This document shows positions 3,101 through 42,190 of a stretch of DNA of 42,190 bases, piece by piece. Position numbers and translations under genes: made by a program. The stretch is taken from positions 1 to 42,190 of the IMG/VR virus record IMGVR_UViG_3300017766_002183. One strand, written 5' to 3'. The notes below the pieces were generated by a model. The model was given only the letters and a program-made list of their open reading frames with translations, was not told where the DNA came from and searched no databases. Position 1 is the stretch's first letter, and each line of letters begins with the position of its first letter. Source of the stretch: a virus. Taxonomy: Duplodnaviria; Caudoviricetes.

Positions 3101-3196
3101 CTGCGGGTTGAGCTTGCGCGCCTGCGGTAGCGGGTTCACCGCCACCTCGGGCTCGCCATAGAGGTCGCGCATTACGTTCGGATCGAGTTGGTTCAT
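1..3196 (-). CDS. 5' part of giant internal virion (ejection) polyvalent protein, ~2,598 aa in total; continues at 42067 down to 37467
   Basis: ATG at 3196 overlaps the TGA of the upstream gene (ATGA) and reads MNQLDPNVMRDLYGEPEV. Position 94 equals 42161 and 3196-94 is divisible by 3, so it is in frame with the 1564-aa ORF. Contains FKSWFGDSKVVDAEGKPLVVYHGT. Not in the ORF track because it runs off the end; I translated parts of it, not all. Confidence 0.88.
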   Translation of the reverse strand, partial: MNQLDPNVMRDLYGEPEVAVNPLPQARKLNPQDVARGVQIQKQTGVDAILAAQRLPEFQAELDQDYWNRMVKDSPKTAKFMAASPVNAALLQKDADSGNLGMLEAAFKPIVAAAKYVFSAPDTKNTLTGDLAGGWYKGSASIYGVVRAGAELAAPVLDPLAGTVLPENPLRRLAAGAEGQAKRMNEIGNYYSPPASGIVQGGVSAGVQSAVGFGKYAPLLALGPVGGSAALAGMVSETFGSSYTQARDKGMAPISATTFAVPQAVIEYATEKIPMSKLIGDIANNATLRQTLVHQLKSEIPGEQVATILQDLNEWAVLNPEKPFKEYLAERPSAAAQTLIATAVGVGGNVAVSRAVGGVMDKSGAVEAQAQQAEQHAKLFEDIQKTAAATEVLGTNAETLTAYMQDLADEGVPQVFVDSAKLVEAGVDLAKLAETVPSIAAQLEQVEFSGDLVIPTGELLAATVGTEFAQPLIDNARTDVNGMSRIEAQTYMQEKGDQVNAEIERVLAEKAQDDEFKAGRDEIQAEVLQQLNEIKRFTPKVNENYALLTANFYAVMSARSGMTVRQFADTYKLGFKSESVAGGMYDQGGQLATESDAFKSWFGDSKVVDAEGKPLVVYHGTAKAFTKFDQNKTMDGAFWFTSDKAALDGGEVGAAASGDVMPVYLSANRLAGWDDYENKTYDQLIAEGFDGIKLDNDYVIFNPTQIKSVFNRGTFDPNDANILNQEAAGELVAQHNLTAENLLHAVRMGGIAVPSLAVTNKAHPLTNFGEITLVAPSEMVDPKGYAATKVFGADIYSPRYPSIALELTPAMRRAGESLLQPGKDATDTRYIDWSEVERDGARELERMAPVMWQFLDSKGIEPTVVRTAPKPLPELLQPFADDNRHTHELAADPAFINAAWATYEAMLVEAYDGDAAAAKAEVDDTRKRAEQRGVSQTVNGYAQDIQTYRNEVRQSGKVDTWKTKNAMDEQIRAAGLTDEFRGYVKNLLGSLKPNERIFQGFTPSGNRKYVPHTLENVVKILKKELRGGENFNYGVGSLRAKFTPQFKSIDQIRKAKNRLMDRAAF

Positions 3197-5058
3197 TGTG
3201 GGCGGCTGTTGAAATATTCCAGGATCAGGGCGTCGGTGGGCGTGCCGCCGTTGGCCGTGATGGCGTTGGAGATGCGGGTGCGCATGGTGGGCGGGATCTG
3301 GCGCACTGCGCGCCCGATAGCCACGTCACTCAGTCGGGCCTTGGCACCCGCGGGGTCGAATGCGCCCTCGGTGAAGGGCTGCCCGTAACTGGCGCCGAAG
3401 ATGGTGCTGCGGTACGTCTTGTTGGTGAACAGGGTGTCGATCACGCCCTGCACTTCCACCTTGTCGGCCTTGCCACCGGTCTGGGCTTGGTAGGCCTGCA
3501 GCAGCGGCTCGGCAGCTGCGCGGGCTTGGTTCTTGAGCTCGGCCTGCTTGTCCTTGGGCAGGTCGGTGAACTTGCGCCCACCCACCACCACACCGGCCAG
3601 TCGCATATCCAGATGGTCGTCCGCGCTCACCAGCGTGGCCATCTCGGCCTGCTTTTCGGGTTTCTGTAGGTTCACCCAGATGTCGGCCAGCGCACCGGCC
3701 TGCTGGGCGCTGAGGGAACCCTTGCTGACCGGATCGCGCAGGACGCTGACCATATCGGCCGCCCGGTACTTGGTGGGGTTGCGCACCATGTCCATCTTCA
3801 AGGCGATGAAGTTCAGGGCCTTGTCGGGGCTGGACTCGGCCAGACTGCGGGCACGGCTCTGCGCCTCAAAGCCCTCGCGCCGGATCTCGTCGTTGTGCTG
3901 GTCCACCGCTGCGGCTGCTTTGCGGTACAGCTCGGGGTTCTTGGCAAGGATCGGCTTCACGTACTGCTCGATCTCTTGCTTGGAGATGGGCCGCCCCGCG
4001 GTGATGGCGTTACCGATCAAGCCGTCCACCGGTCCTAGGTAGGCCTTTTCCTCGTTCTTCACCGCGTCGTCGCGCAGCTTGTCCTGGTAGGCCAGCTCGC
4101 TGCGGGCGTACTTCAGATCCTGCGGTTTGCCCTTGAAGGCCTCGGCCAGTTGCCGGTCGATGTCGCGCAGGTTCCAGTCGTTGCCTGCCGCGACCATCAG
4201 CTCCTGCACCTTGCCGGTGCCGCGCTGCTCGGCTGCTGCAGTGCCCACTGCGTCCTGAAACTGCACCTTGGCCTGCAGCGTCATTTCTGCGCTGTGCCGG
4301 TTGTAGTAGTCCTCGGCACGGCTCGGGTCGTTCTTAATGAAGCCGGTCAGCACGGCCGCATGCAAGGGCGACAGCATTTTCGCCCGCATGCCCTCGATCA
4401 TGTCCTTGTCTTTGCCGGCGTCCAGCCCGTTGCGCTCGATGGTCTTGGCGATCACGCCGTCCACCTTGGCCCGGGAGATAGCCACCTCGTTGGCGTCACC
4501 GTAGAGCATGCCGGCCGTGCGATACGCACCGTTCAGTGTCTCGTTGTCGGTGTCCTGGTCAAACTGCTTTTGTTGCTGGATGACGTGGCCACCGAGCTGG
4601 GTGCGGTAGTGGTTGGTGAGCTGGCCGGTGTACTGAGTGAACGCCTGCTTTTGGCGGGTGTTGCCCAGCGACTCCAGAATCTTCTGGGATGCCTTGTCCA
4701 GCTCTTCGGCTTCCTCGTCCATTAGGCTCTTGCCGTCGGGGCGCTCCAGCGCTGCCCGCCCGGTGAGGGTCAGGGCCTTAAGTTGCCGGTCGGTCTTGAT
4801 CCGGTCGAGCTGGTTGCGAGCGTCCGAGATCCGCAGATCGTCGGCCTTTTGCTGCTCTTCCAAAGCAATCCGCGCCACCGCACCGCCTGCGTTCTGCAAG
4901 GCTTGGCCGGTCTGGTTGAGCTGGTCGGCACCAACGGCACCGGCTTGAGGGCCGCTCGGGCCTTGCAGCAGCTGCGGGCCGCGCGAGCCACTGAGCATAG
5001 TGCCCGGCCCTGCGGATACGCTGGTCTGTAGGTTGTTGTAAACGGGGACGGTGGCCAT
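3193..5058 (-). CDS. internal virion (ejection) protein, 621 aa
   Basis: Long helical Ala/Gln-rich ORF between the small and giant internal virion proteins, the usual podovirus order. Confidence 0.7.
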   Translation of the reverse strand: MATVPVYNNLQTSVSAGPGTMLSGSRGPQLLQGPSGPQAGAVGADQLNQTGQALQNAGGAVARIALEEQQKADDLRISDARNQLDRIKTDRQLKALTLTGRAALERPDGKSLMDEEAEELDKASQKILESLGNTRQKQAFTQYTGQLTNHYRTQLGGHVIQQQKQFDQDTDNETLNGAYRTAGMLYGDANEVAISRAKVDGVIAKTIERNGLDAGKDKDMIEGMRAKMLSPLHAAVLTGFIKNDPSRAEDYYNRHSAEMTLQAKVQFQDAVGTAAAEQRGTGKVQELMVAAGNDWNLRDIDRQLAEAFKGKPQDLKYARSELAYQDKLRDDAVKNEEKAYLGPVDGLIGNAITAGRPISKQEIEQYVKPILAKNPELYRKAAAAVDQHNDEIRREGFEAQSRARSLAESSPDKALNFIALKMDMVRNPTKYRAADMVSVLRDPVSKGSLSAQQAGALADIWVNLQKPEKQAEMATLVSADDHLDMRLAGVVVGGRKFTDLPKDKQAELKNQARAAAEPLLQAYQAQTGGKADKVEVQGVIDTLFTNKTYRSTIFGASYGQPFTEGAFDPAGAKARLSDVAIGRAVRQIPPTMRTRISNAITANGGTPTDALILEYFNSRPQ

Positions 5059-11699: not shown

Positions 11700-13310
11700 T
11701 TACAAAATCCAAGCCATTACATCGTCAATATCGACTGTGGCGGTGTTTGCGCCGCTCCAAATGTCTATACGAACTTTGGCGGCCCCTCTAGGCGCACGGT
11801 ACCAAGAAGACGATTTGTTATAGCCGCCCACCGCGTTGTAAGAAACGGCATCGAAGTTTTGGATAAGGTTTCCGCCTACGTCTAAGAACCGAATTCTGAC
11901 AAAGACGCCGCCACTGGCTAGAGCCGTGACTTTTAGGTTCAGCTCAGCCATCAAAATTTGCGCAGGCAGTATGGGCAGCTCGTAGTAGAAATCAGAGGAA
12001 GCGGCACCAGTCCAAATTCCGCGAATCGAGTTACCACCAGCAATACCCTGACCAACACCCACGGACACAGCAACGTTGCCGCTAACTGGGGTCCACGGTG
12101 TAGCCACGGGCGTCCCAGCATCTTGCCCCTGATAAATCAAATTCGCGTAGCTTGAAATCTTTGGCTGCTGCGCAGACCCACCAGTCGCCAGAACAGTCGC
12201 GCCGACATAAGTAATTTTTGGGAGCCCAGAAACAACCGTAATCATTTCGGTTGTCATCTGATATGCGTACCAATGGGCGGACGAAACATCCACAAAACAG
12301 CGATCCCCTGTAACGCTAATTAGCGTCGGACGTCCTGGAGCAACCTCTGTGTTTGAAATATCACCCGCAATATGTAGCTCCACCCAATCACCAGCGCCGG
12401 TCCCATCCAGTTGGAACATGGGTGATGCCTTGTTGTTTTCTAGGTTCCCGCCAAAAATCTTCAAGCGCCCCGACTGCATTACTGCATTGATGTCGTTGTA
12501 GTCCAGCGAAGTCCCGAACAGGTGCAACTGATTTGCGCCACCGGCTCCCATAAAAATTCCGGTTCCTGTGAGCCCCGCATTTGCGCAGTCGGAGATACGC
12601 CCGCCAAACATCGAAAGGTTTTCCCCAGCGTACTGAGAGCCGGGGTAATTCAAGCCGTATCGTTTGGCACCGACGATGCTTACGTTATAAAGATGATTGA
12701 TGTACGCACCACGGTCGTAAAAAATTCCGTCTCGAAATCCTTTTATGAGTAGGTTTCGGAACGACATGCCAGTTATTACGCCGGTTCCCGCTACGACACG
12801 ATCAATCTTGATGCCGTCTACTGTTGTGGCGTCAGCCGCTGGGCCTTTGATATAGCCATTGCACAGGACGTCCCGAATATTGGCGTACTCGCCATAAGGG
12901 TCAAGTGGCGGATTAACTGTGATGGCAACCCCAGAAGTCATACCACTAAAGTCAAGGATGGAGCCGTTTAGGTCAATGGACACGGCTCCAGCCCTAAATG
13001 TGATTCCACTATTCAGCTTTACCGTGCAACCTTGGGGCAGCTTAAAGTCTTTTCTGTTGGTTTCAGACGCATTGTTAATTGCCGCCTGAAATGCGGCGGC
13101 ATCATCCACTACGCCATCAGCCTGAATTTCAATAAAGCTGCTTATACCCGACTTGCCGCCACCCGCCAACAATGCCGCCCCCCCGGTGAAAGGATTGGTT
13201 TTTAAAGTGGGCACCAGGTTCTCGCGGCCTTGCGCATCCAACACGCCGACGTATTCACCGGTAACAAAGTCGAATAGGTCCGCGCTCTCGCCGGTTTTGT
13301 AGTTGCTCAT
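11700..13310 (-). CDS. tailspike/depolymerase-like protein (pectin-lyase-type beta-helix, probable C-terminal carbohydrate-binding domain)
   Basis: ADGVVDDAAAFQAAIN beta-helix entry motif, Gly/Asn-rich strand repeats, C-terminal APRGAAKVRIDI...VDIDDV jelly-roll signature. Confidence 0.75.
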   Translation of the reverse strand: MSNYKTGESADLFDFVTGEYVGVLDAQGRENLVPTLKTNPFTGGAALLAGGGKSGISSFIEIQADGVVDDAAAFQAAINNASETNRKDFKLPQGCTVKLNSGITFRAGAVSIDLNGSILDFSGMTSGVAITVNPPLDPYGEYANIRDVLCNGYIKGPAADATTVDGIKIDRVVAGTGVITGMSFRNLLIKGFRDGIFYDRGAYINHLYNVSIVGAKRYGLNYPGSQYAGENLSMFGGRISDCANAGLTGTGIFMGAGGANQLHLFGTSLDYNDINAVMQSGRLKIFGGNLENNKASPMFQLDGTGAGDWVELHIAGDISNTEVAPGRPTLISVTGDRCFVDVSSAHWYAYQMTTEMITVVSGLPKITYVGATVLATGGSAQQPKISSYANLIYQGQDAGTPVATPWTPVSGNVAVSVGVGQGIAGGNSIRGIWTGAASSDFYYELPILPAQILMAELNLKVTALASGGVFVRIRFLDVGGNLIQNFDAVSYNAVGGYNKSSSWYRAPRGAAKVRIDIWSGANTATVDIDDVMAWIL

Positions 13311-15457: not shown

Positions 15458-17011
15458 CTATCGATTCATTGATTCGTAGGGATCATGTTCTCGGCGTTGG
15501 TTGCTACGCGCACCCCCGTCGGGCGGCGGGGCTGGGTGATCCGGCACGGGGAAGGCGAACGTGAGGGCCAGCGCGTCGCCGTCGTCGGGGCTGGGCAGTC
15601 CGCGCTGCTTCATGTGCTCCTTGCTTTCGAGCTGGATCTGGTCGGCCGCGGTGTACTGGTATTCCACGTTAGTCAGGTCAGTGGCCAGCAGCTCGTCCTT
15701 GGTCAAGCTGCCGATAGCCAGCCAATCCTTGACCCGCCCCCACATCTCGGCCCGCTTGTTCAGGTACTTGCGTGTGTCGTCGGCCTTGCCCCCGAACTGC
15801 ACCTCTACCACGTCGTAGTTCATTTGGCGCAGCCGGTCCACCACACCGCCACCCACACCGCCGCCGTCAATGAACACCACGGTGCGCAGGCCTAGACTGT
15901 GCAGGTAATCGATGTGTTCGGCCACCCTACTGGCCAGCTGCATGGTGTCGAGCTCGCGGAATCGCTTGACAGGGAAGGCGTCGCCGTTGCGCCCTATGCG
16001 TGTGCGGATCACGCTCTGGTCGTCGCCGAACCGCGCCACGTCCACGCCCACCGCTGCAGTGCGGCCGTGATGGCGTTCGTCCGGTGCTGGCCGTGCCATG
16101 GCGACGTCCACCAGCTCGCGCGGAATGAATTGCAGGCTGGAAGCGTTCGGGAACACCCCACGCACCCGTACCTTCACGAAGTCGCTGTTTTCGCCGTAGT
16201 CGCGCACCCAGCCGTCCAGCGTGGCCTTATTGGTGATGGCCACCGTGCGGCTGTCAATCTGCCGGTTATTCCAGCGGTGGCGGTGCTTGCCGAAGCAATC
16301 GGCGAACGCGCCCGTGTTGCGGGTTGGGTTGCCGAATGCAAAGTGCATAGGCTCGCCGTCAGTTTTGCCGCCCTCGGCCACCTGCCAGATCGCGCTGGGG
16401 ATCGCGCTCGCCTCATCGAACAGATACCACGGGGTGCTGCTCGCTGCGTGCAGGCCGGCGAACGACTCGCTGTTCTCTTCCCGGCTGGTCTGGGCATCCA
16501 CCCGCCAGCTGTCGGGGTGCTGGTTGTGCGTCAAGCGCATGGCGCCCTTGCCGGTAGTGATGGTGAACCAGTGCTTGTTAACGGCCTTGGACAGCCAGGA
16601 CGACACACCCGCCCAGGTCTTGCTGGATAGCTGCTCCGCGGTGTTAGCCGTCACCACGCCCTTGGAATGTGGCCTGGTGCTCATGATCCACAGCACCAGC
16701 CACGCAGCCATTGCTGACTTGCCAATGCCGTGCCCTGAGCTGATGGCGTACTGGATCGGCTCGACTGCGTTGATGCCATCGAATCCCCGCTCGCGCACCT
16801 TCTGGCCTAGGTCGGTAAGGAAGTCGCAGGCCCAGAGATCCGGGCCGTACTCGCTGCCATAGATCAAGTCGTATGGGCTGGGCAGCTTCACCAGCTGGAT
16901 CGACTTGTCGGTGTCCCAAGGAAAGCAGTACAAAACGAAGCCCAATGGGTCGTCGTAGAACTGCGCCAGATCACTGGCCAGCTGGGTGTCGAGCTCAGCT
17001 ACTGAGGCCAC
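15458..17011 (-). CDS. terL: terminase large subunit
   Basis: Walker A SGHGIGKS, Walker B YLFDEAS, FGNPTR, nuclease motifs GVDVARFGDD and SPDDGDALALTF. Confidence 0.95.
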   Translation of the reverse strand: MASVAELDTQLASDLAQFYDDPLGFVLYCFPWDTDKSIQLVKLPSPYDLIYGSEYGPDLWACDFLTDLGQKVRERGFDGINAVEPIQYAISSGHGIGKSAMAAWLVLWIMSTRPHSKGVVTANTAEQLSSKTWAGVSSWLSKAVNKHWFTITTGKGAMRLTHNQHPDSWRVDAQTSREENSESFAGLHAASSTPWYLFDEASAIPSAIWQVAEGGKTDGEPMHFAFGNPTRNTGAFADCFGKHRHRWNNRQIDSRTVAITNKATLDGWVRDYGENSDFVKVRVRGVFPNASSLQFIPRELVDVAMARPAPDERHHGRTAAVGVDVARFGDDQSVIRTRIGRNGDAFPVKRFRELDTMQLASRVAEHIDYLHSLGLRTVVFIDGGGVGGGVVDRLRQMNYDVVEVQFGGKADDTRKYLNKRAEMWGRVKDWLAIGSLTKDELLATDLTNVEYQYTAADQIQLESKEHMKQRGLPSPDDGDALALTFAFPVPDHPAPPPDGGARSNQRREHDPYESMNR

Positions 17012-24705: not shown

Positions 24706-25254
24706 ATGAAACTGAAACTCTTGAACGTTCGCCTCGCCTTCCCTCAACTCTTCGAGGCCAAGACCGTGGCCGGTGAAGGCAAGCCCGCCCACAGCGGCAC
24801 CTTCCTGATCGACCCGGCTGACCCGCAGGTGAAGGCCATCAACGCGGCCATCGACGCCACCGCTAAAGAAAAGTGGGGCGCCAAGGCCGACGCCATCCTC
24901 AAGCAAGCCCGTGCTGCTGACAAGGTTTGCCTGCACAACGGCGACCTGAAAGCCACCTATGACGGCTTTCCCGGCAATCTGTTTATCAGCGCCCGCAACC
25001 CGCTGCGCCCCACCGTGGTGGACGCGGACAAGACCCCGCTCACCGAGAAAGACGGGCGGCCATACGCCGGCTGCTACGTGCACGTGGTTCTGGAGCTCTG
25101 GGCGCAGGACAACCAATACGGCAAGCGCGTCAACGCCACCCTCATGGGCGTGCAGTTCTACAAAGACGGCGACAGCTTCACTGGCGGCGGCGTCGCAAGT
25201 GAAGACGACTTTGACGACATCAGCACCGGCGCCACTGCCGACGACTTGGCGTAA
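24706..25254 (+). CDS. DUF2815 single-stranded DNA-binding protein
   Basis: NVRLAFPQLFE, YAGCYV, GVQFYKDGD and an acidic tail. Confidence 0.9.
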   Translation: MKLKLLNVRLAFPQLFEAKTVAGEGKPAHSGTFLIDPADPQVKAINAAIDATAKEKWGAKADAILKQARAADKVCLHNGDLKATYDGFPGNLFISARNPLRPTVVDADKTPLTEKDGRPYAGCYVHVVLELWAQDNQYGKRVNATLMGVQFYKDGDSFTGGGVASEDDFDDISTGATADDLA

Positions 25255-25263
25255 CAGCCGAAC

Positions 25264-25552
25264 GCTAGGCCTCGCAGGGCAGTGCATAGCAAGGCCACGC
25301 ATTTCAAAGCTACACGGATCGCGCCTTTCTCGGAGGGCGCTTTCCGAGTCACTTTGATTCAACCGCATAGCCACGCGCCGCATGGCAGGGCAGAGCATAG
25401 AAAAGCTACACGGATCGCGTCTTTACCAAAGGGCGCTTTCCGGGTCGTTTTGACCTCAGAGCGCCGCATTGCCGAGCAGTGCACAGCAGAGCAGCGCAGT
25501 GCAAAGCTATTCGGATCGCGCCTTTACCAAAGGGTGCTTTCCAAACAGCTTT
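25264..25552 (+). ncRNA. three-unit structured RNA array: (GCN-NN)7-8 pentamer tract plus conserved ~50-nt hairpin; candidate guide RNAs
   Basis: Pentamer tracts at 25264-25303, 25365-25399 and 25461-25500; hairpins at about 25304-25357, 25402-25451 and 25503-25552; unit periods 96 and 101 nt; stem variants keep pairing through G-U on the + strand. Confidence 0.8.
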
Positions 25553-25597
25553 AACCCAGACCGGTGTTCATCGGTCGCAACATCGAAAGAGTGAGAA

Positions 25598-26197
25598 ATG
25601 TCCATCCAGCAAGCGCGCATCAAGATCACCGGGCTGAACTACCTGCTGCAAAACAACCCGCAGACCGTTGACCCGTTCAACAGTTTCAGCAAGGCAATGA
25701 AGGCCATCACCAGCAAGAAGAGTAACAAAACCGAGGATGACCTGATTGCCCTGGGCAACATCGAAACCGAATCCAAGCTGTACTTTGACGAGGAAGTCGG
25801 CGTCTATGTCCCCACCCGCTGGTTGACCGAGGCTATTTGCACGGGCGCCTTCGCAGTGATCAAGACCGGCAAGGACAAGATGCGCGGCGGGATCTTCGCC
25901 ACCGAAGAAAAAGCCAAGCTGCAATACAAAGACATGTCCAAGGTCAAAACCATCACCGACGTGGTGATGAACCCGACCTTTCGCCATCGCGCACTGCTGC
26001 CCCAAATGGGCAAACGCATCCCCAAAGACTTCCCTATCTTCAAAGATTGGTCATTCGAGACAGGCATCGAATTTGACGACACCGTGGTGGACTTCGCAGG
26101 GTTGAAGCGCGTAGTCGAACGCACCGCCACTTATGTCGGCTTCGGCGATTTTCGCCCCACCTTCGGCCGCGCCGTTGCTGAGGTGACCAATGCCTAA
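25598..26197 (+). CDS. stand-alone RAMP/Cas7-like RNA-binding protein, 199 aa
   Basis: N-terminal strand IKITGLNYLL, VYVP followed by a helix, PIFKDWSFETGIEFD strand and C-terminal Gly-rich loop VGFGDFRPTFGR. This is the motif order of RAMP (RRM-fold) proteins. Confidence 0.75.
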   Translation: MSIQQARIKITGLNYLLQNNPQTVDPFNSFSKAMKAITSKKSNKTEDDLIALGNIETESKLYFDEEVGVYVPTRWLTEAICTGAFAVIKTGKDKMRGGIFATEEKAKLQYKDMSKVKTITDVVMNPTFRHRALLPQMGKRIPKDFPIFKDWSFETGIEFDDTVVDFAGLKRVVERTATYVGFGDFRPTFGRAVAEVTNA

Positions 26198-26609
26198 AGG
26201 TGCAGTAGCCCGCGATCTGCTCGACGGCCTTAACTCGCGCGGCCTGTTGGAGTACGGCAGTGCGATCCCCACCACCCTGGTGCATGAGCTGCTGGGCTTG
26301 GAAATGCCAGAGCAAGCACCCAAAGCCGTCTACGACCGGCTGGCCATGGCCGAGCTGGCTGCCATCGACTTCTGCCGCAATGCCCTTCTGAGCCAAGGCA
26401 AGTATCTGGCAGGCACCTCTACCGGTTACCGCGTACTGCTGCCCAGCGAAAACAAGGGTCAGATCGACTCGTACATGGCGAGTGCAGACCGCAAGTTGTC
26501 CCGCGCGCTGCGCTTAAGCCGTAGCACTCCCGTCACCGCTGGCGTTCGCAGCGACCAGACCGAGGTGCGCATCCACATGAAAAAGCAGCACCTGCAGGAC
26601 GCGCGATGA
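26190..26609 (+). CDS. accessory protein of the RAMP cassette, possible winged-helix DNA-binding protein
   Basis: Overlaps the RAMP stop by 8 nt and the polymerase start by 4 nt; GAGGTG RBS; helix then KYLAGTSTGYRVLLPSE beta-hairpin then basic helix. Confidence 0.65.
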   Translation: MPKGAVARDLLDGLNSRGLLEYGSAIPTTLVHELLGLEMPEQAPKAVYDRLAMAELAAIDFCRNALLSQGKYLAGTSTGYRVLLPSENKGQIDSYMASADRKLSRALRLSRSTPVTAGVRSDQTEVRIHMKKQHLQDAR

Positions 26610-28672
26610 CCACCAAGCTCTGGCTCGACCTCGAAACCTATTCCGAGGTGCCCATCACCAACGGCACACATTCCTATGCGGCCGGCGCCGAGATCATGCT
26701 GTTTGCCTGGGCACTGGACGACGCCCCGGTGAACGTGTGGGATTGCGCAGCTGAGATAGTGGTGCCCGAAGCCCTTGCCGTAGCTCTCGAAGATCCGGAC
26801 GTAGAGGTGTGGGCACACAACAGCGGTTTCGACCGCACGGTGCTGCGCCACGCCATGGCGCAAGAGTGCCCACCCATCCCTCGCTGGCGCGACACCATGG
26901 TGCAAGCCCTGAGCCACGGCCTGCCCGGTGCGCTGGGCGTGCTGTGCGACATCCTCAAGGTGCCCACCGACTTGGCCAAGGACAAAGAGGGCAAGCAGCT
27001 GGTGCAACTGTTCTGCAAGCCGCGCCCAGCTACCAGCAAGATCCGACGCGCCACCCGCGAGACTCACCCCGCTGAGTGGGCCAAGTTCGTGGAGTACGCA
27101 CGGCTGGACATCGTGGCCATGCGCGAGGTGCACAAGCGCCTGCCGCTATGGAACTACCAAGGCACCGAGCTGGCACTCTGGCATCTCGACCAGGCCATCA
27201 ACGACCGGGGCGTGGCCATCGACATGACGCTGGTGCATGCCGCCATCGCTGCGGTGGACGCTGCCCAGAAGGATCTGGCCGAGCGCACCGTGGCGGCCAC
27301 CGACGGCCAGGTGTCCAGCACCACCAAGCGCGACGCCCTGATGCTGCACATCCTTGAGTCCTACGGTGTGGATCTGCCCGACTTGCAGATGTCCACCATC
27401 GAGCGCAGGCTGGCCGACCCGGATCTGCCCCAAGCGCTCAAGGATCTGCTGGCTATCCGCTTGCAAGCGTCCACCACCAGCACCAGCAAGTACAAAGCGC
27501 TGCTCAAGGGCACCAGCACCGACGGCCGCCTGCGTGGCACCCTGCAATTCAACGGTGCAGCTCGCACCGGGCGCTGGGCCGGTCGCCTGTTCCAGCCCCA
27601 GAACCTTGTACGGGGGACCATGAGCCAGCCCCAAGTGTTGGCCGCTATCGACTCTCTCAAGGCTGGTGCCGCTGATCTGGTGTTCGATAACGTGATGGAG
27701 GTGATATCCAACTGCACCCGCGGCTGCATCATCGCCCCACCCGGCAAGAAGCTGGTGGTGGCCGACTTGTCCAACATTGAGGGCCGCGACCAGGCATGGC
27801 TGGCCGGCGAGGCTTGGAAGCTCAAGGCCTTCCGCGCGTTCGATGCAGGCACCGGCTTCGACCTCTACAAGCTGGCCTATAGCAAGAGCTTTGGCGTAGA
27901 CCCCGCCAAGGTGACCAAGGACCAGCGCCAAGTGGGCAAGGTGCAGGAGCTGGCGCTGGGCTACGAGGGCGGTGTCGGTGCGTTCGTTACCTTTGCCGCT
28001 GCGTATGGCATCGACTTAGAAGAGCTGGCCACCAAGGTGCTGCCGGTTGCACCAGGTTGGGCCGTGGACGAGGCCAGCGGATTCTTCGAGTGGACCGAGA
28101 AGCAAAAGCGCGAAACCTTTGGCCTCTCCCGCGATGCGTTCGTGGCCTGCGATGCGATTAAACGCGGCTGGCGCAACGCCCATCCCGAGATCGCCATGCA
28201 CTGGTCCGAGCTCAAGGAGGTAACGGCCCAAGCTATCGACCACCCGGGCACCACGTTCGCCTGCCGCAAGGTGAAGATCCGGCGCGATGGCAACTGGCTG
28301 CGCATCGGCCTGCCCTCGGGCCGCGCGCTGTGCTACCCCTCGCCCCAGATGGTGGACGGGACCATCACCTACATGGGTATGAACCAGTACACCCGCAAAT
28401 GGAGCCGCCTCAAGACCTACGGCGGCAAGCTGTTCGAGAACATTTGCCAAGCCGTCGCCCGCGATGTGATGACGGCCAACATGCCCCTGATCGAGCAGGC
28501 CGGTTACCAGATCGTGCTGTCTGTGCACGACGAACTGATCACCGAAGCCCCCGACTCCCCCGAGTTCAACGCTGAACACCTGAGCAGTCTGCTGGCTGCT
28601 AACCCGCCCTGGGCGCCCGACATGCCGCTGGCTGCTGCTGGCTTTGAAACCCCTCGCTACAAAAAGGACTAG
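26606..28672 (+). CDS. family A DNA polymerase with 3'-5' exonuclease
   Basis: LWLDLETYS (ExoI), AHNSGFDR (ExoII), RTGRWAG, ADLSNIEGR (motif A), RQVGKVQELALGY (motif B), VHDE (motif C). Confidence 0.95.
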   Translation: MTTKLWLDLETYSEVPITNGTHSYAAGAEIMLFAWALDDAPVNVWDCAAEIVVPEALAVALEDPDVEVWAHNSGFDRTVLRHAMAQECPPIPRWRDTMVQALSHGLPGALGVLCDILKVPTDLAKDKEGKQLVQLFCKPRPATSKIRRATRETHPAEWAKFVEYARLDIVAMREVHKRLPLWNYQGTELALWHLDQAINDRGVAIDMTLVHAAIAAVDAAQKDLAERTVAATDGQVSSTTKRDALMLHILESYGVDLPDLQMSTIERRLADPDLPQALKDLLAIRLQASTTSTSKYKALLKGTSTDGRLRGTLQFNGAARTGRWAGRLFQPQNLVRGTMSQPQVLAAIDSLKAGAADLVFDNVMEVISNCTRGCIIAPPGKKLVVADLSNIEGRDQAWLAGEAWKLKAFRAFDAGTGFDLYKLAYSKSFGVDPAKVTKDQRQVGKVQELALGYEGGVGAFVTFAAAYGIDLEELATKVLPVAPGWAVDEASGFFEWTEKQKRETFGLSRDAFVACDAIKRGWRNAHPEIAMHWSELKEVTAQAIDHPGTTFACRKVKIRRDGNWLRIGLPSGRALCYPSPQMVDGTITYMGMNQYTRKWSRLKTYGGKLFENICQAVARDVMTANMPLIEQAGYQIVLSVHDELITEAPDSPEFNAEHLSSLLAANPPWAPDMPLAAAGFETPRYKKD

Positions 28673-35519: not shown

Positions 35520-35932
35520 GCGTCCACCTGTGCAAAGGCCGTGGCCAGCGAGGGGGCTGCACCTATGGCCGTCAGCGCAATGGCCTGATACCGGGCAAAC
35601 AACACCGCCTCCACGGCTCCGGGCGTGTCGGGCAAGTCTTTGGTGATGTCAAGCAGAGCACCCGCAGCTGTGTCACAAGCCTCGGCAAGAGCCGCCTCAC
35701 CCCGGCGGCTGGCTCGGCCAGCAATGCCCGCCAAGCGGTCCAGAACTTGCTCGCGCACAGCGCGCACGGCCTGCTTTTTGGCGTCGATTAGCAGCGCGGG
35801 TGCGGGGGCCTCAACAGGCTCAGGGGTGTTGCCCTCTTCAAGCCACGCCAGGTAAGCGGGGTTTGTGTCAGGGTCTACAAACGCGCCGCTCTCAATGTGT
35901 TGCGGCCACCCTTGAGTCAGTCGGTAGTTCAT
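35516..35932 (-). CDS. tail fibre assembly/chaperone-like protein
   Basis: DPDTNPAYLAWLEEGNTPEP motif; TGATG coupling to the tail fibre gene; start reassigned to 35932. Confidence 0.7.
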   Translation of the reverse strand: MNYRLTQGWPQHIESGAFVDPDTNPAYLAWLEEGNTPEPVEAPAPALLIDAKKQAVRAVREQVLDRLAGIAGRASRRGEAALAEACDTAAGALLDITKDLPDTPGAVEAVLFARYQAIALTAIGAAPSLATAFAQVDA

Positions 35933-37407
35933 CAATACACCTCTGCGTCTGCTGTAAAGTGACCACGCACCCACTGACCAGCAGGAACACCATTCAGGCG
36001 TAGGTTCGCACCTTGTCGATTGGCATTTAAGAAGGTGAGGCCCACATCAAGCGCATCACTAGAACTACGCCAAGCAAGGTTCCCCCATGCCTGGGTGGGG
36101 TTTCGCGGCGTGACGTCTGGCACTCTGTCCATTTCTTCTTCAAAGCGCAAACTTACAGGGCAATCCGCAGGGGATGCGCTCGTGTTGACTTGGCTGTAAA
36201 TAGCGCCGTTATCGCCAGGCGAGGTGCCCAAAGGGCCGTCAAAGGATTTGTAAAAAAATCGTTTGCAAAGGCGAAGCTCGTCAGCAGGGAAACGGTGCTC
36301 AAACGCAGTAGCAACGGTGCCAAACTCAAGTTGCACCTCCGATGCTGTGCCGCCGATCAGCCGGATAGTTGCGTCTGTATTTACTGGAAGCGTGAAAACT
36401 TCACCTTTGGTTCTTGCAGTTCCGTTAACGGTTGCGGTTGCTGTTCCGACCCAGTTCAGCACATAGCTACCGCCTCGGATGTTGTAACCCCTGATAACCT
36501 GCTCAACCCCTCCAGCGGGTGCGGTGACAATTCGCCCGATACCAGAAGCGACAAAGGTAATCGACTGACCGGACACAACCACGCGCCAGCGATCTAGGGT
36601 GTACTTATTTGCGCCTGTAGTAGCGGTTCCAGATACATACCCCCACTCATTTACGCTGAAGTTGCCATTGATGAGCAGATTCCGAAAACCGCCCAGCGGC
36701 CCGCCGTTGGTGGAAACAAGCGAGTTCAGGCTTGTAATATCAGCGTTCGCACCAGATGCCGCTGCACCAATCGCCAAACGCGCAGCCGCCGCGTTTGCCG
36801 CGGCGAATACCGCACGGCCCACTGCCGTCGCGCCCAGTGCAGTCTGAGCCGCCACTTCGTCTACGGCGGCCACCACGTTCGCCATGAAAGTAGAGACGGA
36901 TGCGCTGGCAGCCCCCACAAAGTTCTGCAACGCGGTGCCTGCAGCATTCCACCCAAGCAACCCCAACGGTGTCGGATTAGGTAGCGATCCACTTGCGCCC
37001 GAGCTGATACCGAACGTCAGCACCCGGCTGAGTTTCTCGGCCAGCTGCTGGATCTGGATGGTGGCGCGGTCCAGCGCGTCGTTGATAACCTTGGGGTAAA
37101 AGCCGCCCAAGTTGGTCAGATCCGTGCCCTGCGTGTTCTCGATCTGGGTGGTCAAAGTCACCGTGGTGCCAGTCGCATGGGCTGTCACCAGCGTGAGCGT
37201 GCCGCCCGGCATGGCGTCCTGATCAGCATTCAGGCTCACCGTGTAATCGGTGCCCAAGGTGAGCGCGGTTTCTGCGCCCGTAGCAGTGACGGCTTTTACC
37301 GCCAGCACGTCGGCCGCCGTGAAAACCTTGAATTCAAAGGGCAAGGCTACCGATAGCCCGTTGCCGGGGTATGGGCCTGCCTTGCGGATAGTGCTGCTGA
37401 TAGTCAC
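35932..37407 (-). CDS. tail fibre protein
   Basis: T7-type N-terminal anchor (YPGNG...FEFKVF...DALDRATIQIQQL) and distal FRNLLINGNF...YTLDRW...VQLEFGTVATAFEHR domain; AAGGAG RBS. Confidence 0.88.
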   Translation of the reverse strand: MTISSTIRKAGPYPGNGLSVALPFEFKVFTAADVLAVKAVTATGAETALTLGTDYTVSLNADQDAMPGGTLTLVTAHATGTTVTLTTQIENTQGTDLTNLGGFYPKVINDALDRATIQIQQLAEKLSRVLTFGISSGASGSLPNPTPLGLLGWNAAGTALQNFVGAASASVSTFMANVVAAVDEVAAQTALGATAVGRAVFAAANAAAARLAIGAAASGANADITSLNSLVSTNGGPLGGFRNLLINGNFSVNEWGYVSGTATTGANKYTLDRWRVVVSGQSITFVASGIGRIVTAPAGGVEQVIRGYNIRGGSYVLNWVGTATATVNGTARTKGEVFTLPVNTDATIRLIGGTASEVQLEFGTVATAFEHRFPADELRLCKRFFYKSFDGPLGTSPGDNGAIYSQVNTSASPADCPVSLRFEEEMDRVPDVTPRNPTQAWGNLAWRSSSDALDVGLTFLNANRQGANLRLNGVPAGQWVRGHFTADAEVY

Positions 37408-37466: not shown

Positions 37467-40400
37467 TTATGGCTCTTGGTAGCCGGTGAGTAGCACCCCG
37501 GGGTTCTCCGTTTTGCCGTCCACCAGCGCCTGCGCCCCGGTGATGGTGCGGTTAATCTGTGCGGCCGGCAGGCGCAGCAGGTCGCCCGCTGCGTTCACCA
37601 CCGCCTTGCGCAGCCCGTCGTCCATCTCGCCCTGCTTGGCTTGCAGTGCCAGCTTGTAGGCGTCCACGATCATGCGCACACCCGCAGGGCCTTGGTAGCC
37701 TCCCGCGTATTGCTGGGTGCCGGTGGCTGCTTGCACTGCCGCAGTGAACTCGCGCACGCCCACCATCAAGCCCATCAAGAAACTGAGCTGTTCGCCGGCC
37801 AGCTTCTTGAGAATACTCTCAGGGTCTTCCCAATCACCAGAGTCGCCGGCCGTCATCGCGTCCTTGAGGATCGCGCCCAGGATGGCGGGCACGGTGAACA
37901 GCAGCAGGTAGTCGGCGGCCAGTTTGGCCTTGTTGTCGGCCGTCATGGTCTGCCCCACCCCCAAGTTCAGCGCGGTGTTGAAGAACGAATAAAACACGGT
38001 GAACAGCTTGGACACCGGGCCGCCGCGCTCGATGGCGCTCAAGTCCTTGATGGTGCCGCTGCCCTGCGCGTCGATCACGGCCTGGTCGGCCAAGGCCACC
38101 GCGCGGTTTTCGTCGTTGCCCTCAGCCACGGCCTTCTCGTAGGCACCCCACCATGTCGGGGTGTCCACCAGTTGCTGGGCGCGCATCATCAGGAAGTAGG
38201 CCGATGCGTCAATGGCCGCACGGGTTTTGCTCACGCCTTTGACCTGGCTTCGCACCTCGGCGATCTCGCGCAAGCGGGTCAACGCACGGGTGCGCATGAA
38301 CTCGCTCTTTTCGTTGATCTCGTCCACTGTCTCCAGCGGGGAGCCCACGGCCTTGCTGATGCCCTTGCCCACCCACTTCGGCCCGATGCGCACGATGCTC
38401 TGGGTCAGGCCCAGCGGCTGCATCAAGGCAGACATCACGTTCAAGCCCAAGCCCGACACGCTCACGCCTTGGCGCAGCCATGCTGCTGCAGTTTCCCCTG
38501 CGTTCTGGGCACCACGGTCGCCGGTAGCGTTGTCTTCCACCCAGCTCTTGAATTGACGCACCACGTCCGGGCCGTAGCTGTTGCGGATCGCACCATCCAC
38601 TGCCTTGTTCTTCAGCAGCTTGTTGGTGTCGATCAGCCATTCGTGCCACGTCAGATCGTGAATCACCTCTTGCACGCCGTTGTAAATGCCATCCAGCGAG
38701 TACAGCAGCGGGCGGCCGGTGACCTCTTCCGCGCGGGCCTTGGTGAACGACCGGCGCGTGGTGGCGCTGGTGTAGGCGCCCTTGAGCTGCTGCCGTGCGG
38801 CCTCGGCGTCGGCGTGCTCTTCGGCCCGCACGCTGGCCCGGGTGTCGTACTTCACAGGATAGTAGCCACCGCGCAGCACTCCGAACGGGGTTTGCACCGG
38901 TACGGGCTCCACCCAGTTGGGTTCCTTGCCGTAGATCCGGCGCTCTTTGGCCGCGATCTGGGGGCGGTATGTCTCGAAGTGATCCCACACCGCTTGCACG
39001 AATTGCCAGTCGGCAGCGCTCAAGCTGTCCAGCACGGGCCGGATCTGGTCGATAGTCCAGCCTTCACCACCCAGCAGGCGCTGCTCGTTGCCCTTGTTGC
39101 CCATGTTCAGGGCGATGGCCAGGCGGGCCTCCTTGTTCAGGCTGCGCTTGATGGTCGGGAAGAATTGCCCCTTGCCGCCCATCTCGCCCTCTTTCAGCAC
39201 TGGCGCCACCAGCTTGGCCAGCTCCTTGGTGGCCTTCTCGCGCATCACCACCTCGGTGTCGCCTGCGATGTTGGCCGTGCGGATCAGGTACTCCCACACC
39301 GCCCCGCCGTCCTTGCCGCCGTCCATCACGCGCGCCCATGTGGCCACCTTGATGTGTGAGGCCCAGAAGTTCTTTAGGCTCTGCAATGCCAGCGCTGGCA
39401 AGGTGTTGGGTGTGCGGGTGTCAGCCGTGCGGCCCTTGGCGTTCTCGTCGATGCTGGTGGTGATCTCAGCCACCGCTGCCGCGAAGTCCCGATTCTCCTG
39501 CGCGGTCAGCAGCTTGCCCTTGAGTCGGCCCAAGTGCTCGATCTGCTTGATGGTGTCGTACAGGCCGCGCACCTCTTCCACCGTCATGTCCTTGACCGAC
39601 TTGCGGTATGCCTCTTGCAACAAGCCCTCGGGGATCTCAGGCTCCAGCCCCTGCTCGCGCTGAGACTCCACCCACTGCACCAGGCTCTTGCGCTTGTCGA
39701 TGGCTTTGAGGCTGGTGGCCTTGCGCAGATCGAAGCGCTCCAGCAGCGCGTGGATCTGGTCGGCATAGTCAGCATCCAGCGCGGGGCTGGTTTTGTCGAA
39801 CTTCTTGAAGTAGTCCAGCGCCTTGGTCACGTCGTCCTGCGCTTGGTATGCGGCTTTGGTGGCGTACAGGTTGATCAGCTGGTTGCGCTTGTGCTGGGTC
39901 TGTTTCGCCAAGTCCCCGCTGGCCTTGATCGCGGCCTTAGCAGCACGGGCCTCAGCGGCTGCGTACTGGTGGGGGCGCACCTCGCGCACCTTCAAGCGGG
40001 CAATGATCTCGGTGGCGTACTCGCGCGCAGCTCGGGCGAGCACGTCCACGGTGTGCCGTTTTCCGGGCACTTTCTCGCGCACACTGCTGGCTTTCTCCAG
40101 CGCTGCGAGCTCGGTGGCCACGAACTTGACGCGGGCCTCGTTGTGGATGGCAGCGTCCGCTGCGCGCTCCAGCCCTGCGGGTGTAGCCAGATCCCCGTGC
40201 TCTTCCAGCATGCGCTGGTCGGTCATACCCTCGATCACCGACTTGGGTGGCTCGGCGTCGGCCAGTGCGCGCACCAGCTCGTCGCCAGAGCTGAACTCAA
40301 ACAGTTCGGCCACCACGTCGGCGTCCAGCCCGGCGTCGTCGCTGGTCATGCGCAGCTTGGACAGCTTGCGCCAGATCGCGGTGTCGTCGGTCCCGTACAT

Positions 40401-42190
40401 GCGCCGCAAGTCGTCAGTGCGCAGCTTGCCGAATCCCACCTCGGGCAGATCCGGCAGGTTCTGGGGTGCGTCACCGTAGGCTGCAGCCATGTCGCGGCTG
40501 ATCGAGTAGCGATCTGTGCCGCGTCGCTGGTCGTCGAACAGTTCCTCGAACTTGGCGAGGTCAGCACTGCCGTTCTCGTCGGGCAGCATGTAGCCGTACT
40601 CCACCAAGCGCTCGGCCATGGCGTCCAAGCTCAGGCCGTCGGTCTTGCGCACCACCGGGGCGCCAAACACACCAGAGTCCAGTTTTTCCTTCTCGTCCAG
40701 CCCCCACTGGCTTTTAACCTGCGCGCGGTCCAGCCCGCCCAGCTTGGCAATGGCGGTGAATAGGTTGTCCACCTCGGGGTTGATCCCTTTGGCATTGCCC
40801 ACCGGCTTGGTGCCCTCTACCTTGTCCTGCTGCTTGCTGGTGAGGAACACCCACGCCCGGTATAGGGGCTGGCTCAGTACGTCGGCGCGCACGTCGGCCT
40901 CGATGTTCTTGCGCAGGGCGTTGTGCTGTTTTTGCAGCTGCTTGAGCTTACGGCTGCGGGCGTTGCGCAGCCATTGCATATCCCGCAGGCCCTTGCCCTG
41001 CAGCTCCTGAATGGCATCCTGCGTGGCTTGGGTGCCTTGGTCGTGGTAGGCCTTGAACTCGTCCAGAGTCATGCCGCCCTGCTCGGGTGTCTGGAACAGC
41101 GGGCCCATGCTGCGCGCTGCCTCGGCCTCTTGGATCTGCTCGGTGGTGGCGGTCATGCGGTCCATGACTGCGCGCACCTCGTCAGTGAGCTCCACGTCCA
41201 GCGTGTCGCCAATCAGGGAATCCTTGATGGTGCGGTACACATTCACCAGCCACGCGCGGAAGGTCTGGAACATGCGGGTGAGCTCCAAGCTGGGGCTCTT
41301 ACCCTCGAACGCATAGGCCTCGAAGCCTCGCGCCCATTTCTCGTGATGTGGCCGTTTCTGCTCCACACCCATCAGAGCCCACTGATCCAGTGCGCTCAGG
41401 TCTTGATCCCCGGCCACACCCATCCAGCGCAGGGTGGTGTTCATGTCGTCCAGGATCGAGCGCTCGCCCGCCCCCACCTGCTCGCCCGCGGCGATGCGCG
41501 CAGCGATGCGATTGGCCAGATCCGTCTGCACTTCTAGAAAGAAGTGCCCACTCTCGTGGATAAAGGTGGACAGGTCAGCCCCTTTAAGCAAGCTAATGAT
41601 GCTGGCCTGTTGGGTGATGTCGTTGCCGAATGCGATCTGCCCGCGGGCTTCTTGAAAGAACAAGTTGCCGAACTCGCCGATCTTGGCGGCGCGGTCGGCA
41701 TCGTCGCCCTTCTTGTAGGTGCGGATGTCAGTCACGCCCCGGGCGTTCAGGGCTTCGAGCACCTTGGGGTCCACGCCCTCGGGCACCACTGCGCCCTTGA
41801 ACTCGGCCAGATCCACGTCGCGCAGGATCTTGGCCTCGAAGTATTCCGTCGGCAGGTTTTTGAGCTTGGTCAGGAACTCGGCGACTTGCTGGGCGGCATT
41901 GTCGGGCGGTGTCGCACCGTCGCGGTAGTCGGCCATCGCGCGCTGGATGGCACGGGTGGCGCCCAGCTTGGCAGCGTCTTCCATCACCTCAATAGCCTGA
42001 TCCAGCGATAGGCCCAGCATGTCGGAGATGGCCACCATCTCGGCGTCCACTTCGGTCTTGACTTTCCCAAACGCGGCTCGATCCATCAGCCGGTTCTTGG
42101 CCTTGCGGATCTGGTCGATGCTCTTGAACTGCGGGGTGAACTTGGCGCGCAGGGAGCCCACTCCGTAGTTGAAGTTCTCACCGCCACGCA
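37467..42190 (-). CDS. 3' part of the giant internal virion polyvalent protein (continues from 3196 to 1)
   Basis: 1564-aa ORF in frame across the circular junction; contains STFIHESGHFFLE (HExxH) and a helical, partly hydrophobic C-terminus typical of podoviral ejection proteins. Confidence 0.88.
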   Translation of the reverse strand, partial: RGGENFNYGVGSLRAKFTPQFKSIDQIRKAKNRLMDRAAFGKVKTEVDAEMVAISDMLGLSLDQAIEVMEDAAKLGATRAIQRAMADYRDGATPPDNAAQQVAEFLTKLKNLPTEYFEAKILRDVDLAEFKGAVVPEGVDPKVLEALNARGVTDIRTYKKGDDADRAAKIGEFGNLFFQEARGQIAFGNDITQQASIISLLKGADLSTFIHESGHFFLEVQTDLANRIAARIAAGEQVGAGERSILDDMNTTLRWMGVAGDQDLSALDQWALMGVEQKRPHHEKWARGFEAYAFEGKSPSLELTRMFQTFRAWLVNVYRTIKDSLIGDTLDVELTDEVRAVMDRMTATTEQIQEAEAARSMGPLFQTPEQGGMTLDEFKAYHDQGTQATQDAIQELQGKGLRDMQWLRNARSRKLKQLQKQHNALRKNIEADVRADVLSQPLYRAWVFLTSKQQDKVEGTKPVGNAKGINPEVDNLFTAIAKLGGLDRAQVKSQWGLDEKEKLDSGVFGAPVVRKTDGLSLDAMAERLVEYGYMLPDENGSADLAKFEELFDDQRRGTDRYSISRDMAAAYGDAPQNLPDLPEVGFGKLRTDDLRRMYGTDDTAIWRKLSKLRMTSDDAGLDADVVAELFEFSSGDELVRALADAEPPKSVIEGMTDQRMLEEHGDLATPAGLERAADAAIHNEARVKFVATELAALEKASSVREKVPGKRHTVDVLARAAREYATEIIARLKVREVRPHQYAAAEARAAKAAIKASGDLAKQTQHKRNQLINLYATKAAYQAQDDVTKALDYFKKFDKTSPALDADYADQIHALLERFDLRKATSLKAIDKRKSLVQWVESQREQGLEPEIPEGLLQEAYRKSVKDMTVEEVRGLYDTIKQIEHLGRLKGKLLTAQENRDFAAAVAEITTSIDENAKGRTADTRTPNTLPALALQSLKNFWASHIKVATWARVMDGGKDGGAVWEYLIRTANIAGDTEVVMREKATKELAKLVAPVLKEGEMGGKGQFFPTIKRSLNKEARLAIALNMGNKGNEQRLLGGEGWTIDQIRPVLDSLSAADWQFVQAVWDHFETYRPQIAAKERRIYGKEPNWVEPVPVQTPFGVLRGGYYPVKYDTRASVRAEEHADAEAARQQLKGAYTSATTRRSFTKARAEEVTGRPLLYSLDGIYNGVQEVIHDLTWHEWLIDTNKLLKNKAVDGAIRNSYGPDVVRQFKSWVEDNATGDRGAQNAGETAAAWLRQGVSVSGLGLNVMSALMQPLGLTQSIVRIGPKWVGKGISKAVGSPLETVDEINEKSEFMRTRALTRLREIAEVRSQVKGVSKTRAAIDASAYFLMMRAQQLVDTPTWWGAYEKAVAEGNDENRAVALADQAVIDAQGSGTIKDLSAIERGGPVSKLFTVFYSFFNTALNLGVGQTMTADNKAKLAADYLLLFTVPAILGAILKDAMTAGDSGDWEDPESILKKLAGEQLSFLMGLMVGVREFTAAVQAATGTQQYAGGYQGPAGVRMIVDAYKLALQAKQGEMDDGLRKAVVNAAGDLLRLPAAQINRTITGAQALVDGKTENPGVLLTGYQEP
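42068..42190. repeat. 123-bp terminal direct repeat, right copy
   Basis: Identical to 1-123. Confidence 0.95.

Follow-up and report, generated by a model that had tools for sequence, protein, structure and literature searches.

Phased pentamer tracts beside a Vipr homologue in a tailed phage: predicted guide regions of a VIPR variant with a GCA scaffold

The phased pentamer tracts of a 42,190-base virus record (IMGVR_UViG_3300017766_002183, analysed over its whole length and hereafter called the window) very probably serve as the guides within three predicted vrRNAs; the phage VIPR system to which they would belong has a GCA scaffold and is likely to silence the genes of rival mobile elements through binding to the DNA of these elements. 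The tracts lie between the stop codon of a single-stranded DNA-binding protein (SSB) gene (25254) and the start of a 199-aa open reading frame (25598), and since this neighbour is a Vipr homologue, the tracts are read as a variant of VIPR with GCA in place of GGY. VIPR is known from 2026 preprints (10.64898/2026.04.26.720920, 10.64898/2026.04.26.720927, 10.64898/2026.10.15.759431, 10.64898/2026.10.21.760802). Both the array and an accessory gene travel with vipr, and in related loci the variable dinucleotides (NN) match target genes with one base skipped after each pair, the skipped base being the codon wobble position. The system in the window shows every computationally tested feature of VIPR except the GGY scaffold, and the code is established for the guides of its clade. 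The features are listed in Table 1.

Table 1. Features of the VIPR cassette and of its flanking genes (positions in the window)
Feature	Position	Strand	Evidence
Left flank, Enc34-type ssDNA-binding protein	24706..25254	+	PF10991
Predicted vrRNA1, guide tract, 8 GCA-type/NN units	25264..25303	+	sequence; relatives share layout
Predicted vrRNA1, constant tail: last pentamer, two hairpins	25304..25360	+	folds; covariation across tails
Predicted vrRNA2, guide tract, 7 units	25365..25399	+	sequence
Predicted vrRNA2, constant tail: two hairpins, predicted pseudoknot	25400..25456	+	sequence spacing; tail comparison
Predicted vrRNA3, guide tract, 8 units	25461..25500	+	sequence
Predicted vrRNA3, tail: long hairpin kept, second hairpin degenerate	25501..25555	+	tail comparison
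Hairpin between array and vipr start	25559..25576	+	fold
vipr gene, 199-aa RAMP-fold protein, G-loop GFGDFRP	25598..26197	+	PDB 36pp profile match; structure model
Accessory gene, vap1-like, 139 aa, weak winged-helix resemblance	26190..26609	+	hhalign; synteny; Foldseek
Right flank, family A DNA polymerase	26606..28672	+	PF00476

An earlier note, made from the letters alone, had counted 23 pentamers, all beginning with GC and 16 with GCA, and the recount gave the same figures (23/23 and 16/23). The unit periods it proposed, 96 and 101 nt, are the start-to-start spacings that were measured, and the two positions it called variable take 12 different dinucleotides among the 23 units. Its further statement that the 5-nt phase runs into the hairpin held in part: the phase does continue, because the predicted pseudoknot pairs across the last pentamer boundary, but the xxAAA-GC unit belongs to the constant tail and not to the code. 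No other GC-phased run of at least seven pentamers exists in the window of 42 kb; such runs have 7 start positions per strand, against 4 in total in 200 first-order, approximate resamplings of the window, and the same tracts appear on both strands because GC is self-complementary. The array region folds better than 100 of 100 shuffles (z −5.6). The first tail comprises a long hairpin (25315-25346) and a short one (25346-25360), whose CTTT loop can pair with AAAG at 25306-25309 in a predicted pseudoknot, while in the third a nested stem is possible between AAAGCT and AGCTTT. This layout is like that of the VIPR of Escherichia phage SUSP1, where every unit of approximately 100 nt joins a pentamer tract to a 3' tail that is structured and contains a pseudoknot. 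Unlike in SUSP1, the array lies wholly upstream of vipr and the guides have 7-8 units, which is short compared with the 9-16 of published VIPR systems.

A Pfam scan of the 199-aa open reading frame gave no match. A homology search recovered 775 homologues, and a profile built from 38 of them had a single match in the PDB, the SUSP1 Vipr structure (36pp, E 1e-26). The structure model of the protein (pLDDT 87) resembles Csm3/Cas7 chains, so that fold and G-loop are like those of class 1 CRISPR RAMPs; unlike class 1 CRISPR, the guide is read non-contiguously, and there is neither a repeat-spacer array in the window nor a cas gene among the 30 window proteins scanned. The mark of a Vipr protein, a RAMP fold having thumb and G-loop and standing outside any CRISPR locus, is thus present here. 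The closest known system is type II VIPR (SUSP1 and a P. fulva prophage), which is likewise phage-borne and combines a Vipr RAMP homologue with a vap1-like gene. Here, the gene that follows vipr resembles, by hhalign (82%, E 1e-5), the corresponding gene of the SUSP1-family phage BPS15Q2, which is taken from its position as vap1, the accessory gene of type II VIPR with a predicted DNA-binding, winged-helix-like product; a homologue of the window gene is found downstream of vipr in 106 of the 108 loci with room to look. A PDB sequence search with the accessory protein returned no match, and the best Foldseek hit had an E of 0.05, with none at 0.001 or better.

The guide-contact residues reported for SUSP1 Vipr in the accessible text of 10.64898/2026.04.26.720927 include D177, R138 and R179. 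They align with D184, R140 and R186 of the window protein, which are kept in 115, 110 and 116 of 116 sequences, respectively. Other contact positions are substituted throughout the clade (H17 to N19, W178 to F185), and position 75 is a tryptophan in 114 of the 116 sequences, located at the E71/M72 stretch of SUSP1, where aligners disagree by one residue. The window protein is thus unlike SUSP1 Vipr in being only about 30% identical to it and, together with its clade, in carrying an NNPQTVD motif, F for W in the G-loop and the near-invariant W75. The scaffold itself differs as well, with GCA placing a purine at position 3. According to the available parts of two preprints (10.64898/2026.04.26.720920, 10.64898/2026.04.26.720927), the pocket that receives the third scaffold base in SUSP1 is described as closed to purines, and changes to the scaffold abolished silencing. 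This counts against the present reading, since a GCA scaffold would need a remodelled protein. N19, F185 and W75 suggest that Vipr has been remodelled in this way. In a tree of 29 Vipr proteins the branches are long and the deep forks open, and the window protein may fall inside or outside the type II clade.

The arrays of 143 related vipr loci were compared, the window's own contig (L028) being left out throughout, with a caller that tried all 64 trinucleotides as scaffold. GCA was the best scaffold in 116 of 144 rows, corresponding to 100 of 124 distinct vipr loci; six had no run. Of 310 runs, those that lacked a recognisable tail anchor or had fewer than 7 or more than 16 units were dropped, which left 219 guides in 84 loci. 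Among 2184 units the scaffold is GCA in 1546 (71%), followed by GAA, GTA and GCG; GGY accounts for 3 of the 2184, and the canonical GGY definition does not describe these arrays. The expectation that NN varies more than the GCN scaffold was borne out across the 219 guides, with 1.97-1.98 bits at positions 4-5 against 0.39-0.91 bits at positions 1-3, the latter being low in part by construction since the caller favours GCA-like units. Guides and loci in all these counts are partly interdependent. Cultured phages with GCA arrays include Vibrio phage 1.266.O and Listonella phage phiHSIC.

In the tails, the last variable unit is followed by a semi-constant pentamer and then by two hairpins, one long and one short; the loop of the short one is complementary to five bases across the last pentamer boundary. 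Loop and boundary covary (AAAGC with GCTTT or GTTTT, ATAGC with GTTATG), and the full 5/5 pairing within the same tail is seen in 61 of 209 tails, whereas 500 permutations, which ignore relatedness, gave 33.7 on average and 44 at most. A pseudoknot like that of SUSP1 is thereby predicted for these tails.

Several arrays depart from the common pattern. Single tracts of 23-36 GCA units, where 8-14 are usual, are present in L099, L132 and L133. In L125:3712-3990 and L129:10605-10990 the NN positions are of low complexity, for instance AG many times over, and these guides may be unprogrammed or newly amplified. More distant Vipr proteins stand beside other scaffolds: an AGY-like one in L141:11208-11680 (28% identity), a nearly pure GAA one in L140:10600-11000 (37% identity) and a different pattern again in L143:10540-10700 (23% identity). 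The podophage L165 (G002:C1:38201-40519, minus strand) encodes a distant Vipr (E 4e-9) with an array of GGC/NN type after the gene; the phage also has an exact match for guide 3 of the window.

Scaffolds other than GGY have been reported before. Arrays of the types NNNGG, YNNNG and NNNNG appear in the methods of bioRxiv 10.64898/2026.04.26.720920, which also reports IMG/VR matches for types III and V, and the scaffolds GAC, CAC, WGT and TGH in the available part of bioRxiv 10.64898/2026.10.21.760802. The window array is like these non-canonical arrays in having a fixed non-GGY trinucleotide beside a gene of Vipr fold. GCA is unnamed in the accessible preprint texts, and Fig. S17 (720920) or Fig. 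S10 (760802) could show it; GCA may thus already be in print, since non-GGY scaffolds are reported there and figures, tables and data lie outside a text search. The same accessible texts gave no natural targets and no skip rule for the named non-GGY variants.

The earlier note had taken the tracts as a constant scaffold with information stored in NN and read non-contiguously, and had proposed joining the dinucleotides with gaps of 0-3 bases and comparing with shuffles. Applied to the guides of the relatives, a gap of one base, and no other, beats the shuffles, in agreement with that reading; the same search with the window's own guides found no target above controls. The non-contiguous NN code is the published VIPR code, hence not new, and the one-base skip on the wobble position is like that of SUSP1. 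The first test, on 1.2 Mb, was suggestive. In 2.7 Mb of phage loci, from which L145-L165 and L243-L245 had been dropped as they were found with the window guides, the mean gain over the whole set was weak (0.095 ± 0.047), with 11 outlier guides at skip 1 against 1-4 in shuffles. The corresponding outliers were 4 (shuffles 1-5) for skip 0, 1 (1-5) for skip 2 and 9 (2-8) for skip 3, the last being an artefact of unmasked leftover arrays matching themselves. With 30 shuffles, 10 of 219 guides scored at least 1.5 matches above the shuffle mean at skip 1 (shuffles: mean 2.2, maximum 7), and 7 of those 10 skip the wobble base (shuffle mean 0.9). One guide of L049 matches L193 at 18/18 under skip 0, a skip that overall stays within the shuffles.

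A 20-base pattern from an L045 guide, picked after a 21/24 match to a helicase, has two exact matches in IMG/VR, both in one helicase motif. A guide common to L022 and L045 was scanned as an 18-base pattern and gave at least 120 exact IMG/VR matches (about 610 estimated), where fewer than one is expected by chance as extrapolated from 14- and 16-base scans. The gene family and the peptide were predicted in advance and were borne out in 120 of the 120 matches listed. Those 120 all belong to one family, assigned to AAA_24 by a scan of two of the proteins, are antisense with the wobble base skipped, and comprise 49 distinct site sequences. Within the same 120 loci, three other guides match at 20/20 elsewhere in the gene and two match the next gene perfectly, with no perfect guide match at skips 0, 2 or 3.

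The clearest separation was obtained on 0.77 Mb from 30 target records. Leaving out the three guides used to choose the targets, 10 of 216 guides scored at least 2.5 above the shuffle mean at skip 1, compared with 0-1 in 12 shuffles and with 0, 1 and 0 guides at skips 0, 2 and 3. All ten are antisense to the gene and skip the wobble base; since several have the same or neighbouring sites, they cover fewer than ten independent ones. Guides from L001 and L002, two loci with a Vipr 87% identical to that of the window, are among the ten, and the matches of this set include three of 20/20 and one of 18/18 in a large serine recombinase. The remaining 206 guides had no confident target in this set. 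For an L004 guide, the match lies in a DNA polymerase motif that is conserved among related phages (17/18, antisense), and an L012 guide has a 16/16 antisense match. The targets of the relatives' guides are AAA_24 ATPase, helicase, large serine recombinase and DNA polymerase genes, with no enrichment against vipr or vap genes. As in the VIPR of 10.64898/2026.10.15.759431, according to its available text, targets include the recombinase of an integrated element.

Many target records are classed as proviruses in IMG/VR. G503, an element from the target set, has genes for a large serine recombinase, an AAA_24 protein and a D5-type primase, with no capsid or terminase among the 28 of its 57 open reading frames that were scanned. 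Beside the recombinase, G503 (L521:3648-13953; L520:427-9020) also carries an AAA and subtilase pair, an Mrr-type nuclease and AbiTii, and effector-like genes (PF03543, PF24322) are found in the DNA flanking the region.

The search with the three guides of the window gave no target above controls in IMG/VR, the phage records, 401 bacterial genomes or the 0.77 Mb target set. Exact IMG/VR matches at skip 1 numbered 8, 117 and 12 for guides 1, 2 and 3. The 8 records matched by guide 1 are all unrelated to the window. The matches of guide 2 fall in 57 clusters, the largest of which (21 contigs including L277) is a single phage protein, metallophosphoesterase-like by eye, with the guide on a conserved motif of the sense strand and the wobble base skipped; the other two guides lend it no support, guide 1 hitting 1 and guide 3 hitting 2 of the 21 records with up to three mismatches. 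Guide 3 matches the adaptor gene of the related podophages L147, L150 and L155 with the skip on codon position 2, in a gene 32% identical to the window's. Both matches are leads only. No match was found in 50 AAA_24/helicase target records, and no excess over control in Vipr-bearing and polymerase-related records. In the 401 genomes of G023's order, guide 1 occurred in 7 with up to one mismatch, far below the reversed control, and guide 3 exactly in 1, against 3 control matches. Self-targeting stayed at background level (best 13/16, including guide 3 on its own vipr, 26079-26101, minus strand).

It is conceivable, if unlikely, that the system works in the clade while the three guides of this phage are unprogrammed, stale or decayed, and the cassette idle or a decoy. 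The missing targets, the short tracts, the degenerate second hairpin of the third tail and the lack of a close match between these guides and the 216 of the relatives are all consistent with this. Against it, both genes are intact with their key residues retained, scaffold and tails are well preserved, and the search had low power, since each guide offers 14-16 informative bases. A betaproteobacterial host is our guess, as related vipr genes occur in named genomes such as Azonexus (64%) and a MAG of Rhodoferax (51%).

On the preferred reading, the VIPR cassette is an optional module, placed where the SSB gene meets the DNA polymerase gene. The window encodes GP7 capsid, head-tail connector and Bbp16 proteins and an integrase, and its replication module reads DUF2800, Enc34-SSB, family A polymerase and SNF2 (Pfam scan), with the cassette starting directly 3' of the SSB stop. 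A sister phage, L166, is 91-96% identical across this module and has no VIPR cassette: it diverges from the window at 25254, similarity returns at 26612, and exactly where the cassette sits it carries a 209-aa gene (L166:6437-7066) with an HNH-like motif by eye and no confident match in a Pfam scan. A contig of run X3 also departs at 25254, with yet another sequence, and vipr is present in just L185 among the 36 polymerase-related loci L166-L201. From these sequences, the SSB-polymerase junction looks like a hotspot of exchange. A contig of run X1, possibly the source of this DNA, spans the stretch in one piece with 0 differences. Five large open reading frames of the window (491-1564 aa; 37467-42161, 35932-37407, 15458-17011, 11700-13310 and 3193-5058, all on the minus strand) had no Pfam match at E 0.01. 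The Rfam search gave a single match at chance level, the tRNA search none, the search of 24900-26700 for sigma-70-like promoters none, and no RNA run is listed among public sequencing runs as carrying the DNA.

By analogy with SUSP1, a transcript of the array would be processed to RNAs of roughly 100 nt, on which one Vipr protomer per pentamer would hide the three scaffold bases, leaving NN to pair with one DNA strand. The 3' pseudoknot would cap the filament, and the outcome would be a block of transcription helped by Vap. We infer RNA production, silencing and scaffold orthogonality for the GCA clade.

That the same system acts mainly on mRNA, or depends on the coding strand instead of binding either DNA strand, appears rather improbable. 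All confident targets of the GCA clade are on one strand, unlike those of SUSP1: the ten guides are antisense, as are the L004 and L012 matches, and SUSP1 Vipr is able to hold an RNA target (10.64898/2026.04.26.720927, in its available text). The ten guides nevertheless represent fewer independent sites, and weaker candidates on the sense strand exist (L113 guides, 20/26 and 16/18; L042 guide, 21/26). The SUSP1 system has targets on either strand and silences through both, and with RNA targets the filaments were mostly incomplete, according to the accessible parts of 10.64898/2026.04.26.720920 and 10.64898/2026.04.26.720927. Finally, a pentanucleotide microsatellite in decay, or a set of DNA repeats that bind protein and are joined to terminators, would have nothing to do with RNA guidance. 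A weak period-5 repeat at 25474-25507 (Tandem Repeats Finder) speaks for such a reading, which can be set aside in view of the tight linkage to Vipr, the covarying tails and the gap-specific, wobble-registered matches to conserved genes elsewhere.

For the VIPR family, the natural targets indicate that the code survives a change of the scaffold letters, and since the two-on, one-off code holds with another scaffold, it lies in the geometry of the protein and not in GGY. In phages unrelated to each other, GCA guides converge on one kind of integrated element, and there on its ATPase, helicase and recombinase genes, which points to a concrete conflict. Tentatively, these phages may carry a widespread undescribed subtype, with a GCA-specific Vipr that takes a purine at position 3 and guides that are orthogonal to GGY. 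The genes for recombination and replication in a common family of integrated elements would be its consistent targets, on the coding strand or possibly in the mRNA. With the GCA scaffold, the evolution of scaffold specificity could be tested directly by structure, and a second scaffold could give an orthogonal, programmable repressor of 199 aa beside the VIPR of SUSP1.
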